This document shows positions 6,559 through 11,622 of a DNA stretch of 14,708 nucleotides, one piece after another. The stretch lies in the UHGV virus genome UHGV-1345802; one strand, given 5' to 3'. Position 1 is the first letter of the stretch, and each line of letters opens with the position of its first letter. The position numbers were made by a program, and so were the translations under genes. This stretch comes from a virus. The notes below the pieces were generated by a model. It had not been told where the DNA came from. It worked only from the letters and a program-made list of their open reading frames with translations, and searched no databases.

Positions 6559-7706
6559 TTGCGCCCCCTTGCCTCTGAAGGGTTCAGCGACAAATTTATG
6601 AGGCAGGCCAGCGCCGAAGCATCATTAATATAGTCATATAAGCTAACAGCCAGCGGAGATTCGGCTTTTGCCAACATAGGATAAAGCTGCTGCAGCCAGA
6701 CCTGATGAATTGATGAAATGTAGGAACAGAGAACGCTGGCGTTATGTGCAACGTCGCTCGGTACAGCAGGCTTTGAAAGCTGTTTCTCCATCTGGTTAAA
6801 GGCATTGATGTATGCCTCTTTGAACTTGGCAGCACGTTTACCCGTGAAACCCATAGCAAGAAACGCAAAACCGTCGCGGGTGATTTGGTAACAAGGGAGT
6901 TTGCGGCCTGATGCGTCGGTGTATTCACTTAACACAAAAATGTGTTCAGTAAATTCAGCGGAACATTCGAGGTTTCTAATTCTATCTAAAACCCGCTCAT
7001 GCCGTTTAGTAAAGTAATTAGCTACTGCAAGAGATGTGGTGACAACGCGACCATTGATAATCGTGATTTCAGGGTGAGATTGGGTTGGGAGAGTAGTCAT
7101 GGTGACAGCCCCTATGTTGAATTCAATGAACTCACCACCAAGGCTTTCCACGACCATATAGGTGGTGAGACGTACAGGGGTGGAAATACCGGTCAACATA
7201 GAACCCGGCCCAACCGAAGTTGGCCCTGCACGCCCCACCATAATTTGGGCGTAACGATGCTCATGACACGAAAAAACCGCATGAGCGCGGTTGTGCTCTA
7301 TATTGAATTTCGGGTTTCCACGCCCGGCACCCGCTTTATAAGGTGCCGGAACAGTGTAACGTCCCGGAATTGCAGAATCAATATGCTGGTGTTCCTTCAC
7401 ACTCAACAAAATCACGCCTGAATTTCCACAAAGGACTAAAGCACTCATGCGGGTAGTCTTTGCGAAGATAGATAACGCGCTGTGTTTCTGGCTCCCAACG
7501 AATAACATGGACATAAAGCCCTCTTCCGTCACGAAACCAGCGGTTAAGTTCCTGCACAACTCGCCCCCCACAGTCAGGTAAAGTTCTCTGTGGTTACTTA
7601 CAGCCAGGTGATTTGGTAATCTGCATTCATGCCGTAACAACAGGTGTTCAGCGACGCTGACCACCAGCTGTTGCGACAAACGGTTATTTGCCGTTAAACT
7701 GTTCAT
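6555..7706 (-). CDS. Rha-family phage regulatory protein with an unexplained ~200-aa N-terminal extension (possible fusion or two genes)
   Basis: Residues from the internal Met at 7100 (MTTLPTQSHPEITIINGRVVTTSLAVANYFTKRHERVLDRIRNL...) look like the Rha (pRha) domain. The frame is open upstream to an ATG at 7706 that overlaps the preceding stop (ATGA). The N-terminal 202 aa match no family I recognise. Confidence 0.6.
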   Translation of the reverse strand: MNSLTANNRLSQQLVVSVAEHLLLRHECRLPNHLAVSNHRELYLTVGGELCRNLTAGFVTEEGFMSMLFVGSQKHSALSIFAKTTRMSALVLCGNSGVILLSVKEHQHIDSAIPGRYTVPAPYKAGAGRGNPKFNIEHNRAHAVFSCHEHRYAQIMVGRAGPTSVGPGSMLTGISTPVRLTTYMVVESLGGEFIEFNIGAVTMTTLPTQSHPEITIINGRVVTTSLAVANYFTKRHERVLDRIRNLECSAEFTEHIFVLSEYTDASGRKLPCYQITRDGFAFLAMGFTGKRAAKFKEAYINAFNQMEKQLSKPAVPSDVAHNASVLCSYISSIHQVWLQQLYPMLAKAESPLAVSLYDYINDASALACLINLSLNPSEARGRK

Positions 7707-8365
7707 GCGTTAGTTTCTCCACAACCAGAAGCAATCGACGCCACGACGCCCGGAGCTGCACACTCGCGGGCGTTACTCTTTTCCGGCGCACAAAAAACAC
7801 GAAATAACAGTGTTAAATGCTCCTGCCACTTCGCCATTACTTGGTAGCTGTTCTCTTCGATTTGCTCACGCTCAGCCTGGTCAATAACTCCATCAGCAGT
7901 TGCCTTGCGTAAGTACTGGGAATGCTTGCCAATCCATTCTATTGACTCCATCAGCCGCTGATTAATGTCACCATTGTCAATGTCATCAATGTCCACCAGC
8001 GGCACAAACACCCCATTACAACGACGCGCTATCGCATCCGTTACATGCCTGGTACCACTGGCATCCTGTAAAACCATGGCCCACTCAAGTGGAAAAATTT
8101 GATCCCCACCGCTACGCAGTCTGTTATGCAATTGATCTTTCGCTGGGGTGATATCATCAGATTTATACAAACCAAGAATTTCCGCTGCTTCCTCATAGCC
8201 ATGAGGTAAATCAGCAATCGTTCTTCGTATTGCTGCCACCAGCCATGCTGGTTGCTTATCAACTTTCCATTCAGGTTCTTTACCCACGGTTAATTCCTCG
8301 TTTCTGTGGTTACGTTTACGCAGTTGAACCGCTAACTTTTTAATAGCACTCAGGTAATCCATCAT
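7703..8365 (-). CDS. CII-position regulatory protein (CII/YdaT-like, tentative)
   Basis: About 220 aa directly downstream of cro, the slot used by lysogeny-establishment regulators. Start is ambiguous (ATG 8365 or 8362, or ATG 8398); either overlaps the cro 3' end. Family is a tentative recollection. Confidence 0.4.
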   Translation of the reverse strand: MMDYLSAIKKLAVQLRKRNHRNEELTVGKEPEWKVDKQPAWLVAAIRRTIADLPHGYEEAAEILGLYKSDDITPAKDQLHNRLRSGGDQIFPLEWAMVLQDASGTRHVTDAIARRCNGVFVPLVDIDDIDNGDINQRLMESIEWIGKHSQYLRKATADGVIDQAEREQIEENSYQVMAKWQEHLTLLFRVFCAPEKSNARECAAPGVVASIASGCGETNA

Positions 8366-8579
8366 TTGGATTGGGGTAAATATCAGGACGCAGTTCATGA
8401 GGGGTCACGGACCAGTTTCCCAACTCACAAAGTTGTAAAACCCGTTCTGACGGGACTTGATTGTTAATTACCCAATTGGCGACGGATTGAGTGGACTTAA
8501 AACCAAAGCGACGGGCTACTTCAGATAAAGATTTTCCCGCAGCCTTTACTGCTTTCTCTGTGTAGTTTTGAGATGACAT
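8340..8579 (-). CDS. cro: Cro-type HTH repressor
   Basis: 79 aa with an HTH (SLSEVARRFGFKSTQSVANWV), divergent from the cI-like gene. ATG at 8579 has AGGAG about 7 nt upstream. Confidence 0.75.
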   Translation of the reverse strand: MSSQNYTEKAVKAAGKSLSEVARRFGFKSTQSVANWVINNQVPSERVLQLCELGNWSVTPHELRPDIYPNPNDGLPECY

Positions 8580-8587
8580 ACCTTTCT

Positions 8588-8649
8588 CCTCTGAAATTCA
8601 GAGGGATAATGCTACTTAAAATAGCAAATTGCAACTACTTAAAATAGAA
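8588..8649. promoter_or_regulatory. oR/pR-pRM divergent control region
   Basis: Candidate pR on the minus strand: -35 TTGCAA (8629-8634), 17-nt spacer, -10 CATTAT (complement of 8606-8611). Repeated CTACTTAAAATAG at 8612-8624 and 8635-8647. A 17-bp perfect palindrome CCTCTGAAATTCAGAGG (8588-8604) lies between the -10 and the cro Shine-Dalgarno. Confidence 0.55.
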
Positions 8650-9390
8650 ATGACTAGCGCGTGCGATGTGAGTAATCTTCTACCTATGGTAGAAGAACAG
8701 AAGTATCCAGATTTCGCCAAGAGACTAAACGAATTGATGACAATCAAAGGAATCTCTGTCACTCAACTCAAAAGTCTTGTGGGCGTTACATATGAAATGG
8801 CTCGTCGATACACAATCGGCGCAGCGAAGCCACGTGTCTCTGTCATGAGTAAACTTGCGTTGGCTCTTGGAGTATCAGCTTCATATCTAGAATATGGTGT
8901 TGGAGATAGAGAGGAATGTAAGGAAATGGCAAGCATCCCCAATCCAACAAAGCCCGATGTATACAGGATAGAAGTTTTGGATCTTAGCGTTAGCGCAGGA
9001 CCTGGGACCTATATGCTTTCAGACTATGTTGATGTGCTCTACGCCATTGAGTTCACAACTGAACATGCCCGTTCTCTTTTCGGAAACCGTTCTCAGAATG
9101 ATATAAAAGTTATGACGGTAAATGGAGATAGTATGTCCCCAACTCTTGTTTCCGGGGATCGATTGTTTGTCGACATTTCCGTTCGCCACTTCCAGACTGA
9201 TGGAGTTTACTCTTTCGTTTACGGTAAGACTTTCCATGTTAAACGTCTACAAATGCAAGGCAACAAACTAGCTGTTCTTTCGGATAACCCCGCCTATGAG
9301 AAATGGTACATTGATGAGAAGTCGCAAGATCAGCTTTATGTTATGGGTAAGGCACTGATTCATGAGTCGATTAAATATAATCGACTTTAA
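8650..9390 (+). CDS. cI: cI-type prophage repressor (HTH_XRE + S24 LexA-like peptidase)
   Basis: N-terminal HTH (LNELMTIKGISVTQLKSLVGVTYEMARRY) and a C-terminal S24 domain with GDSMSPTL and a downstream Lys (HVKRLQ). The start has no Shine-Dalgarno (ATG 8650 or ATG 8686; track start TTG 8629), consistent with a leaderless cI message. Confidence 0.85.
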   Translation: MTSACDVSNLLPMVEEQKYPDFAKRLNELMTIKGISVTQLKSLVGVTYEMARRYTIGAAKPRVSVMSKLALALGVSASYLEYGVGDREECKEMASIPNPTKPDVYRIEVLDLSVSAGPGTYMLSDYVDVLYAIEFTTEHARSLFGNRSQNDIKVMTVNGDSMSPTLVSGDRLFVDISVRHFQTDGVYSFVYGKTFHVKRLQMQGNKLAVLSDNPAYEKWYIDEKSQDQLYVMGKALIHESIKYNRL

Positions 9391-9624
9391 TTAGGCATCT
9401 AGCAATCGTTAAAGCAAACGAGCACAGATGATAAAAGATAAGGATAGAAAATCTTTATACAAATTTTATTTGGCACATTGGTCCATAAAAATGGATTAAC
9501 ACTGAGCTGTTACCCTAAGTAAGAAAAGATAAAGACCATATGTTATCTTTGGGTGCGTTACTAACACAAAAAAAACCAAAATAAAACATAAATAATAGAC
9601 AATTCTATACAACAGGATACGATA

Positions 9625-10710
9625 ATGATTAATGAACGTACTGAAGCGACAGATGGGGTAGCAGATATGATTTCCACCAATACAAAATATTTAGTATGGA
9701 ACAACAAAGGTGGTGTAGGAAAAACTTTTCTTACATATAATCTTGCCGTTGAGTTTGCTATATCTCATCCGGATCAAGATGTTGTGGTTATTGACTCATG
9801 CCCTCAATCAAACGTTTCAGAAATTATTCTTGGTGGCAATGGTACCGGGGAAGAAAATCTAAATAAATTGCGAGACAGAAATGTTACAATCGCAGGTTAT
9901 ATCAAGGAGCGTTTTAGCAAATCTCCTTTGTCTCGTTTAGGAAATGAATCTTCTTACTTTGTACGAGCCCATGATGTTAATGCAAAAATGCCAGAGAACT
10001 TATATATTCTTCCTGGTGATGTCGATCTTGATATCTGTTCACGCTTAATATCTCACATTGGCTCATCCCCAGTAAAAGAAGCATGGAAGAAAAGCCGATC
10101 TTTGCTGGTAGATCTAATAGCATCTTTTGAAGCCGATAAAAACATTTCTGACAGAGCAAAAACATTTTTTATTGATTGTAATCCAAGTTTTGCCAGCTAC
10201 ACAGAATTGGGAGTAGTCGCGGCAAATAGAATAATTATCCCTTGCACTGCCGATGCTGCATCAATTCGCGGAATAAAAAACCTTGTTAAACTTATTTATG
10301 GAGTGTCTATTGACAAGTCAGAACAAGATGAAATGTTCTTAGATTTCAACAAAGAAGCAAAGCAAAACCTTATCGAACTACCTGAACTACACCTTTTCGT
10401 ACAAAACCGCTCAAGAACTAATGAAAGTGATGCAGCAAAAGCATTCAAATCACATGCAGAAGAGATCAAAAGAATCACGGATGACCTGTTAAATACACAT
10501 CCTCATCTGTTCACAAATGTGGCTACTTTCGAGAGAGTTCAAAATGTCAAAGATGGTAATACTCTTGCAGCAATAATAAACCATGAGGGATGCCCTTTAA
10601 GTAGGCTGCAGCATAAGAGTTACACTATCTATGGTATGGCGACCCAAGCTAATAGAGCACAAATTGAAGCACTAGAATCTGATGTTTCAACAGTAGTCAA
10701 GTGTCTGTAA
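9625..10710 (+). CDS. Orphan ParA/MinD-family P-loop ATPase in the rex-equivalent position (candidate superinfection-exclusion or defence moron)
   Basis: Deviant Walker A NNKGGVGKT, then IDSCPQSN and FFIDCNPSF...IIIPCTADAASIRG matching ParA/Soj motifs; 361 aa with a long C-terminal extension. The gene and flanks are visibly AT-rich, and no ParB-like partner was seen. ATG at 9625 (AGGAT upstream); alternative ATG at 9670. Confidence 0.75.
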   Translation: MINERTEATDGVADMISTNTKYLVWNNKGGVGKTFLTYNLAVEFAISHPDQDVVVIDSCPQSNVSEIILGGNGTGEENLNKLRDRNVTIAGYIKERFSKSPLSRLGNESSYFVRAHDVNAKMPENLYILPGDVDLDICSRLISHIGSSPVKEAWKKSRSLLVDLIASFEADKNISDRAKTFFIDCNPSFASYTELGVVAANRIIIPCTADAASIRGIKNLVKLIYGVSIDKSEQDEMFLDFNKEAKQNLIELPELHLFVQNRSRTNESDAAKAFKSHAEEIKRITDDLLNTHPHLFTNVATFERVQNVKDGNTLAAIINHEGCPLSRLQHKSYTIYGMATQANRAQIEALESDVSTVVKCL

Positions 10711-10746
10711 TACAATAACCATGATTTAGAACGAACATAATTCTCG

Positions 10747-10770
10747 CCCGACCAACAGGTCGGGTTTTAT
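10747..10770 (+). terminator. Intrinsic terminator after the ParA-like gene (tImm-like)
   Basis: Stem CCCGACC (10747-10753) / GGTCGGG (10758-10764), loop AACA, followed by TTTTAT. Confidence 0.7.
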
Positions 10771-10985
10771 ACTCGTAGCCTGCTTAATAACACTGTTCCT
10801 GACCCGTTGTATCCATAGTTCCCACTATTTTCCCCAAAATTATTACTATCTAATTAACCTAATAATTAAACCAAAACAAAAGACACTCGATATTTTCTAT
10901 ACGTAACTACACCACATCCCCCCATCTGTGAAAAACCTTTTAATTCATAACGTTATATAGAAAACTAAAAATTAAATACACACTT

Positions 10986-11027
10986 CTACTTTTTGTTGTT
11001 GATTTTTGCTACTTTTAGTAGCATCAT
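10986..11027 (+). promoter_or_regulatory. Candidate pL/oL: near-duplicate of the pR/oR cassette
   Basis: -35 TTGATT (10999-11004), 17-nt spacer TTTGCTACTTTTAGTAG (differs from the pR spacer at 2 positions), -10 CATCAT (11022-11027). Operator-like CTACTT motifs at 10986-10995 and 11009-11021. Confidence 0.5.
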
Positions 11028-11037
11028 TATCTGAACA

Positions 11038-11054
11038 AACAACAGACTGTTGTT
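11038..11054. repeat. 17-bp perfect palindrome AACAACAGACTGTTGTT at the predicted start of the leftward early transcript
   Basis: Read directly from the sequence. Same position relative to the promoter as the unrelated palindrome at 8588-8604 downstream of pR. Confidence 0.5.
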
Positions 11055-11439
11055 AACGAAAGGTTGGTTGTAACACGGCGTATGGCACATGCGTCGTTAG
11101 CGGTCTGGGGACGTTAAAGGGGACAATCCACTCCTTGCTCGGGCAAACAAACCAGGTAGCCGGAATGTGCAAGTCAATGATGATGCTGATAAGACGCCTA
11201 ACCAGCGTGGCGATTCGGTTTGACGCTTGGGAAGAGACCAGGGTGCAACGATGAGGGCATTTATGGAGCCGCGACAAAGTGTGGTGCCGTAACTGGCTAA
11301 GTGCTCTCAGCGTTGTGGTAATCCGCGAAATGGCGCGGCGGTAAGTATGGCGGGGTTACTCTTTCCCCGTTGAGGACACCGGATTGTCAGGTTGACCATA
11401 CGCCTGAGTGACAACCCCACCACAACAGCCACTGCTTTG

Positions 11440-11485
11440 GCGGTACCAGTTTGTACACTTGCTTCCGGCTGGTACCGCTCTTTTT
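11440..11485 (+). terminator. Strong hairpin plus U-tract in the early-left leader (tL-like terminator or attenuator)
   Basis: 10-bp stem GCGGTACCAG (11440-11449) / CTGGTACCGC (11469-11478), 19-nt loop, followed by TCTTTTT. Confidence 0.5.
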
Positions 11486-11622
11486 ACAAAACAGAGAAGA
11501 GCATCACCGGACGACGGGCTCATAACCCAATCCATCCGGGCGGCTGCCACCGCAGGTGTTCTTCTCTGTTTTGTGGAGAAACCAACCGACCTTTCAGGGT
11601 CGATATGATGAGGAGCAGCAAA

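Follow-up and report, generated by a model that had tools for sequence, protein, structure and literature searches.

Two perfect 17-bp palindromes lie beside the two divergent early promoters of a lambdoid prophage from E. coli; both belong to the ordinary kind of inverted repeat that occurs close to promoters. The reading that we favor, although tentatively, is that they are independent, lineage-restricted and weakly selected repeats, which would exert at most minor effects through nucleic-acid structure and would not serve a dedicated DNA-binding protein. The palindromes matter little and reveal no additional regulator of the lysis-lysogeny switch; the useful outcome of following them up is a corrected map of the e14/YmfL-type immunity region, with five CTAC-N5-GTAG operators, a probably leaderless cI and an identical geometry of pR and pL. 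A structured RNA, which is very probably real, begins about ten bases past the second palindrome.

Genomic setting of the palindromes

The window (the whole 14,708-bp stretch of DNA that was analyzed) is early-region DNA from a lambdoid prophage of E. coli, in which cro and cI were identified by protein-family matches. The genes that flank the control region are as follows.

8340-8579, minus strand: cro, encoding a 79-aa YdaS-type HTH protein (PF15943, 3.5e-11), annotated as 'transcriptional regulator' by RefSeq in a relative (L001)
8686-9390, plus strand: cI repressor gene (HTH_3 and Peptidase_S24), with the start codon used by RefSeq in L001
9625-10765, plus strand: ParA-family gene, 3' of cI, with a terminator-like hairpin at 10746-10765

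The layout in the original prediction, with cro leftward from pR, cI and ParA rightward and pL further to the right, was correct. Protein-family matches also identified an Ash/Rha gene and one of the CII/YmfL type left of cro, and yfdP, DUF2303 (yfdQ) and HD-hydrolase (yfdR) genes at the right side of the window. The annotation is the same in a near-identical prophage of strain STEC17-183, where no feature is listed between the ParA gene and the gene that follows it. The ParA-family ATPase is 361 aa long, has a C-terminal region of about 130 aa that lacks a family assignment, and is encoded by a gene that has its own terminator and lies between cI and pL; the protein had no PADLOC match. In sister prophages the same slot holds small ORFs or an unrelated ParA-like gene (23% identity). 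Within the pR operon, upstream of the ash/rha gene, a tandem of C4 antisense RNA (82 bits) and isrK (62 bits) occupies 7158-7346 on the minus strand and constitutes a P1/Gifsy-type antirepressor control module.

Each of the two palindromes consists of 8-bp arms around one central base, exactly as predicted.

8588-8604, unstranded: palindrome 1, CCTCTGAAATTCAGAGG (CCTCTGAATTTCAGAGG on the cro strand), about -5 to +12 of pR
11038-11054, plus strand: palindrome 2, AACAACAGACTGTTGTT, about +5 to +21 of the pL transcript

Their promoter-proximal location and the lack of relation between their sequences were likewise borne out. They are the only perfect 8+1+8 palindromes in the window, for which first-order Markov simulations of the whole window gave an expectation of 0.49 and a probability of about 0.10 for two or more. 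The chance of finding one palindrome within 25 bp of each early promoter is of the order of 1e-6 (a post hoc figure, from about 3e-5 per position). Two such palindromes beside both early promoters are improbable by chance and may reflect some further selection. The window as a whole is rich in hairpins with 8-bp arms and loops of up to 10 nt (17, against 2.8 expected). We found no further copy of either palindrome in the window with up to three mismatches. Elsewhere in IMG/VR, the exact 17-mers are confined to unrelated settings, namely coding DNA, a tandem repeat and the terminators of other phages, and a common trans-acting factor was rejected on these grounds. Neither palindrome resembles an intrinsic terminator, which would have a GC-rich hairpin and a U tract after it; the palindromes are flanked by AGAAAGG and AACGAAAGG, and the terminator scan reported only 10746-10765 and 8441-8454.

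Operators and putative early promoters

A pattern search for the 13-bp motif CTAC-N5-GTAG recovered five copies in the window, which we designate OR1, OR2, OR3, OL1 and OL2. The operators and the elements that we place around them are listed below.

8586-8592, minus strand: cro Shine-Dalgarno AGAGGAG, 6 nt before the ATG, overlapping the right arm of palindrome 1
8598 or 8599, minus strand: predicted pR start (A8598 or G8599)
8606-8634, minus strand: putative pR, -35 TTGCAA (8629-8634), 17-nt spacer containing OR1, -10 CATTAT (8606-8611)
8612-8624, unstranded: OR1, CTACTTAAAATAG
8635-8647, unstranded: OR2, CTACTTAAAATAG, at 23-bp spacing to OR1
8676-8696, unstranded: OR3-type perfect palindrome (9+3+9), TCTTCTACCTATGGTAGAAGA, with the core CTACCTATGGTAG; its centre is the cI ATG and the operator core is at 8680
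10986-10998, plus strand: OL2, CTAC-N5-GTAG
10999-11027, plus strand: putative pL, -35 TTGATT (10999-11004), 17-nt spacer, -10 CATCAT (11022-11027)
11009-11021, plus strand: OL1, CTAC-N5-GTAG, 23 bp from OL2
11033 or 11034, plus strand: predicted pL start (G11033 or A11034)

The two putative promoters are built alike: in each, one operator occupies the 17-nt spacer, another lies 23 bp upstream, and the string GTAGCAT(C/T)AT is present. We infer both from this operator geometry and from the parallel between them; neither was called by a consensus promoter scan with a threshold of 9/12, and the pR hexamers match at 8/12 by our own count. The pR -10 is CATCAT in most relatives, instead of the CATTAT of the window. 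A discriminator of the usual length, 6-7 nt, would put both starts at the G or A of a common CTGAA, which is present in both early leaders (8595-8599 and 11031-11035). A 7-mer, GAAAGGT, also recurs 1-3 nt past the palindrome in both leaders (8581-8587 and 11058-11064), and the shared strings suggest that the pR and pL leaders are paralogous and differ by 12 nt in length.

This map alters the original description of the palindromes in two respects. Palindrome 1 had been placed between the pR -10 and the cro Shine-Dalgarno; it begins 1 nt past the putative -10 and in fact overlaps the Shine-Dalgarno (AGAGGAG, 8592-8586), a site that is kept or improved in relatives (CGGAGGAG, TAGAGGAG). The two palindromes had also been assigned the same position in the two leaders. 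Palindrome 2 begins 10 nt past the putative pL -10, and the predicted +1 would fall inside palindrome 1 but 4-5 nt before palindrome 2, so that the former should straddle the pR start (about -5 to +12) and the latter should lie wholly within the pL transcript (about +5 to +21).

No Shine-Dalgarno precedes cI, and transcription from a candidate pRM (ATGACT-17-TAATCT) would begin with the A of the cI ATG; these features suggest that the cI mRNA is leaderless, like that of lambda.

Conservation and folding of palindrome 1

At a coverage of at least 80%, the cro-cI control region is found in 238 genomes of E. coli and in 28 IMG/VR contigs. Palindrome 1 is perfect in 26 of the 29 copies formed by the 28 IMG/VR loci and the window; among the remaining three, the right arm reads CGGAGG in two, and the third carries two changes. 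Variants are also present in the E. coli relative L007 (CTGGATTTCAG) and in the most diverged E. coli relative, L008 (CTGAATTCTAG), and the palindrome is wholly absent from the nearest other immunity type, which has similar operators (L009). Backgrounds with differing -35, spacer and -10 sequences nevertheless have the perfect form as their consensus. Variable columns among 14 distinct sequences were distributed as follows.

Palindrome 1: 6 of 18
Spacer 8648-8675: 13 of 28
OR1: 3 of 13
OR2: 1 of 13
OR3 palindrome: 2 of 21

The OR3 core is invariant in all relatives, and variation there is confined to the outermost bases. The 6/18 variable columns of palindrome 1, set against the low variability of the operators, argue that it evolves as spacer DNA and not as a protein-binding site. 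Conservation in relatives had been proposed as a check on the palindromes, and for palindrome 1 the outcome speaks in part against a conserved function, with asymmetric changes in 5 of the 14 distinct relatives and nothing of the palindrome in the L009 type.

Palindrome 1 alone folds at -8.5 kcal/mol (z -3.5 against shuffles). Its left arm constitutes the discriminator, upstream of the predicted start, and the pR mRNA should therefore carry the right arm alone; the mRNA modelled from G8599 had no significant structure (-4.1 kcal/mol, z +0.65). In a modelled transcript containing both arms, a hairpin of -10 kcal/mol forms over the cro Shine-Dalgarno. Three of the five substitutions seen in palindrome 1 are compatible with G-U pairing, which is the chance level for transitions.

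Conservation and folding of palindrome 2

Palindrome 2 lies in a short segment that links the OL/pL island to the module downstream.

11031-11063, plus strand: 33-nt junction segment, seen in this leader type only, containing palindrome 2 followed by AACGAAAGG

On the upstream side, a 75-bp OL/pL island (10956-11030) is about 81% identical in sister prophages. Homology with the sister prophages and the IMG/VR relatives ends at the pL -10, beyond which their leader is a different module. The pL leader of the window is present in 71 genomes only, and 119 more keep just the 75-bp island. On the downstream side, the sequence from 11064 is GC-rich and is conserved well beyond this immunity group. 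Palindrome 2 is missing from the type B and type C leaders that share the same OL/pL; absence from close relatives with intact promoters had been named in advance as the observation that would count against a function, and it is what we found for palindrome 2, in relatives with the same operators and an intact pL. The ParA-like genes that precede the type A and type B leaders share just 23% identity, and this divergence, together with the lack of a PADLOC match, provides no evidence either way on the ParA-like protein as a binder of palindrome 2. The palindrome is invariant in all type-A copies seen; these copies are all at least 97.7% identical and hence uninformative on compensatory evolution.

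The RNA of palindrome 2 forms a 7-bp stem with a 3-nt loop (-4.0 kcal/mol, z -2.2 against shuffles). Within the context of the pL leader, RNAfold pairs its arms with neighboring sequence instead. Phages of other immunity that carry the same downstream RNA (cdtI, PhiR40_1 and the Stx2c phages) do not have palindrome 2. Upstream of this RNA, 46 distinct leader sequences were collected in IMG/VR; the other leader types among them likewise lack palindrome 2 and have no conserved hairpin, and the idea that a conserved 5' hairpin belongs to the architecture of the downstream RNA was rejected for that reason. Small hairpins in the cdtI-type and PhiR40-type leaders coincide with the most variable bases, and folds upstream of the RNA were heterogeneous among 43 representatives. 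Judged from these comparisons, palindrome 2 is apparently dispensable both for pL and for the downstream RNA.

A structured RNA in the pL leader

The conserved module that follows the junction segment is listed with its helices.

11064-11333, plus strand: conserved ORF-less RNA module, with a covariation-supported core of about 200 nt at 11076-11261
11076-84/11088-96, plus strand: RNA helix
11101-08/11152-62, plus strand: RNA helix
11164-68/11257-61, plus strand: RNA closing helix
11194-97/11205-08, plus strand: RNA helix
11226-30/11238-42, plus strand: RNA helix

The module contains no plus-strand ORF of 40 aa or more. An alignment of 12 sequences yielded 36 consensus pairs, 10 of them with compensatory changes. 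When the structure was placed on the 43 representatives (at most 90% identity), 93.5% of cells were paired, compared to 28-43% with the partners slid; double changes occurred at 11 pairs and in 71 cells, against 21.4 cells in shuffles, a value that none of 500 shuffles reached. On this larger set, RNAalifold also proposed an alternative pairing of the invariant strings GCACAU and AUGUGC. The covariation makes it very probable that the structured RNA is real.

The RNA occurs once in the window. Distant BLAST matches place it in P1, P7, D6 and RCS47. The P1 copy lies between a tRNA-Ile gene and ban, in the C1-controlled ban operon; phiV10/SPN1S-type podophages provide the RNA with its own promoter and sometimes with a tRNA-Arg after it; in mEp390 it lies just past the repressor gene, and it is also present in many lambdoid phages. 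A tRNA on the same strand adjoins the RNA in 6 of 42 loci (ARAGORN), and in SPN1S (Infernal). In species-representative genomes, the invariant motif was found at only two loci. Most sequenced E. coli genomes match the surrounding 3.2-kb region (8300-11500) in some part, which is not a count of the RNA core. RefSeq leaves the RNA region unannotated in a near-identical prophage. The RNA had no match in Rfam 15, either from the window or from six diverse loci, even at permissive E-values, and a literature search on its invariant strings, the P1 ban operon and structured RNAs of prophages returned nothing relevant. On these two results, we consider the RNA probably undescribed.

The segment 11323-11418 matches the beginning of the P1 ban operon at 75% identity, beside the annotated 'dicF-like region' of P1, and the noncoding pieces of the two leaders, P1 ban and this pL, are shuffled relatives. 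In phiV10/SPN1S-like contigs (L288, L235, L303, L217, L289 and L039), the promoter of the RNA has a conserved palindrome of its own that overlaps the start, ATTACCTTT(T/A)AGGTAAT, after a TTGACA -35.

A broader proposal would be that the pL transcript opens with an undescribed, widespread phage RNA, that palindrome 2 is its lineage-specific 5' hairpin, with an end-defining, protecting or fold-timing role, and that the slot after pL, which in sister prophages holds a different conserved structured element of 65 nt, is a cassette site for interchangeable early regulatory RNAs. We regard this combination as unlikely, and the functional tie of the RNA to palindrome 2 is its weak link. The RNAs in such a slot would be, for example, cis-acting antiterminators or trans-acting RNAs targeting the host. 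If the RNA proved to be a cis-acting antiterminator, or to target a host or defence factor, this would be relevant to the early program of the many lambdoid phages without N and nut.

Possible explanations of the palindromes

On the reading that we tentatively favor, the two palindromes would act differently, if they act at all. A transcript started at pR would carry only the right arm of palindrome 1, the left arm being the discriminator (-5 to +2), and would leave the cro Shine-Dalgarno open; one entering from upstream would carry both arms and could sequester AGAGG in a hairpin of -8.5 to -10 kcal/mol. Hiding the cro ribosome site in transcripts begun upstream of pR is the only structural effect that could be open to palindrome 1. 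Since cI, ParA and the pL operon are all encoded on the opposite strand, no source of leftward read-through into pR was evident, and a fold-back role has a weak rationale here. Palindrome 2 would form the earliest fold in the pL transcript, a weak hairpin that leaves 4-5 nt free at the 5' end; it lies in the junction between the immunity-specific OL/pL island and the mobile structured-RNA module. It might provide, at most, modest protection of the 5' end or insulation of the folding of the downstream RNA, and the 4-5 unpaired nucleotides before it are borderline for end protection.

The palindromes may have no function at all, having arisen by chance or as quasi-palindromes perfected by intramolecular template switching during replication and tolerated in weakly constrained leader DNA. 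Much of the comparative evidence is consistent with this: palindrome 1 changes at about the rate of the neighboring spacer, with the asymmetric changes noted above, palindrome 2 lies within a recombination junction and appears dispensable, and the excess of palindromes anywhere in the window is only at P of about 0.10. We nonetheless hold a complete lack of function to be somewhat unlikely, given that both palindromes lie within 25 bp of the -10 element of an early promoter, that the perfect form of palindrome 1 is the consensus despite its differing promoter backgrounds, and that the window is enriched in real hairpins. Dimeric regulators had been suggested originally, and in that case the palindromes would be operators at which one or two further DNA-binding proteins block early transcription at or just past the start. 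The perfect 8+1+8 dyads are centred at about +4 of pR and about +13 of pL, which are classic repressor positions, and perfect symmetry up to a 1-nt centre is commoner in protein sites than in RNA hairpins; in addition, cdtI-type phages have an operator-like dyad, ATGTA-N9-TACAT, over the cro Shine-Dalgarno at the equivalent place. The lack of a common half-site would require two proteins, however, and neither palindrome resembles the CTAC-N5-GTAG operators or recurs in the 14.7 kb or in other phage groups. Variation in palindrome 1 is at the level of spacer and far exceeds that of the operators, and palindrome 2 is absent from relatives of the same immunity. Taken together, these observations disfavor the suggestion, and we consider such operators improbable.

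The second original suggestion, that both palindromes are 5' stem-loops which stabilize or gate the pR and pL transcripts, is more improbable still. The isolated hairpins do fold better than their shuffles, and G-U pairing would survive three of the five substitutions in palindrome 1, a proportion that transitions produce by chance. The difficulty lies mainly with palindrome 1, which would need a start within 2 nt of the -10 hexamer; RNA polymerase is not known to start so close, and no alternative -10 is present. The suggestion can therefore stand only for palindrome 2, which would be fully transcribed from the putative pL, and not for palindrome 1, whose left arm is upstream of the predicted start. 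Even for palindrome 2 it is only marginally plausible; the other leaders that precede the same RNA are without a conserved hairpin.

Comparison with known regulatory elements

The palindromes resemble the lambda OR and OL operators in being dyad sites of about 17 bp beside the divergent early promoters of a lambdoid immunity region. The phage's own operators, with five copies of CTAC-N5-GTAG and 23-bp spacing, are unlike the palindromes, each of which is single-copy. Neither palindrome matches the CI/Cro operator family of the prophage, and comparison by eye with the half-site TT[G/C]CTAC gave at most 3-4 matches of 7. The LexA box CTGT-N8-ACAG was not matched either; palindrome 1 reads CTG-N5-CAG and palindrome 2 reads ACAG-A-CTGT, in inverted order. 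The lacO1 operator blocks transcription from +11, and the dyad of palindrome 2 would be similarly centred at about +11 to +13 downstream of the start; it differs from lacO1 in lacking a cognate protein, auxiliary sites and conservation.

In the fold-back inhibition of IS10/IS50 (Tn10/Tn5), an inverted repeat flanks the transcription start, its 3' arm spans the ribosome-binding site, and only externally initiated transcripts can hide that site. Judging by the predicted start, palindrome 1 would have the same geometry. It differs in that the prophage has no evident source of read-through and in that the palindrome is weakly conserved. A 5'-terminal stem-loop of the ompA type, lying about 2-4 nt from the 5' end, stabilizes an mRNA against 5'-end-dependent RNase E/RppH decay. 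The hairpin of palindrome 2 would likewise lie a few nucleotides from the predicted 5' end of a long early transcript, and differs in its 4-5 unpaired 5' nucleotides, its energy of -4 kcal/mol and its absence from sister leaders.

Lambda nut (boxA/boxB) and HK022 put are antitermination signals (PMC9378689), and the palindromes are, like them, directly downstream of early promoters. No boxA (CGCTCTTA / TGCTCTTTAACAA) was found near either promoter with up to three mismatches, and the palindrome stems are A/U-rich or have a 3-nt loop, with no GC stem or GNRA-like loop of the boxB kind. A search for an N-like gene found no plus-strand ORF of 40 aa or more between pL and yfdP. The put RNA of HK022 has two stems in about 70 nt just after pL, whereas the palindromes are single 17-nt hairpins.

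An alternative leader in sister prophages

Sister prophages with the same operators and pL have a different leader containing a conserved element of about 65 nt, ACGAACAGGCAGGACGCCCACGAAGTAGCCGCCGGTGGCGTATGAATGACCGGATGATTCGTT (L005:3860-3925; also in L006, L008, L009 and the IMG/VR contigs L011-L029). The element had no Rfam match and is absent from the window. We dropped the label 'put-like' for it; it occupies the position of putL and has no similarity to HK022 23.0-33.0 kb by BLAST. No boxA was found in the window itself. The type-B leader has a perfect boxA of the rrn type, GCTCTTTAACAA, some 35 nt downstream from the 65-nt element (L005:3958-3969). The element shows compensatory changes (CCGGT...ACCGG compared to CCTGG...CCAGG), and it is also present in ST64B, SfII, SfIV, mEp460 and in Yersinia and Pantoea phages.
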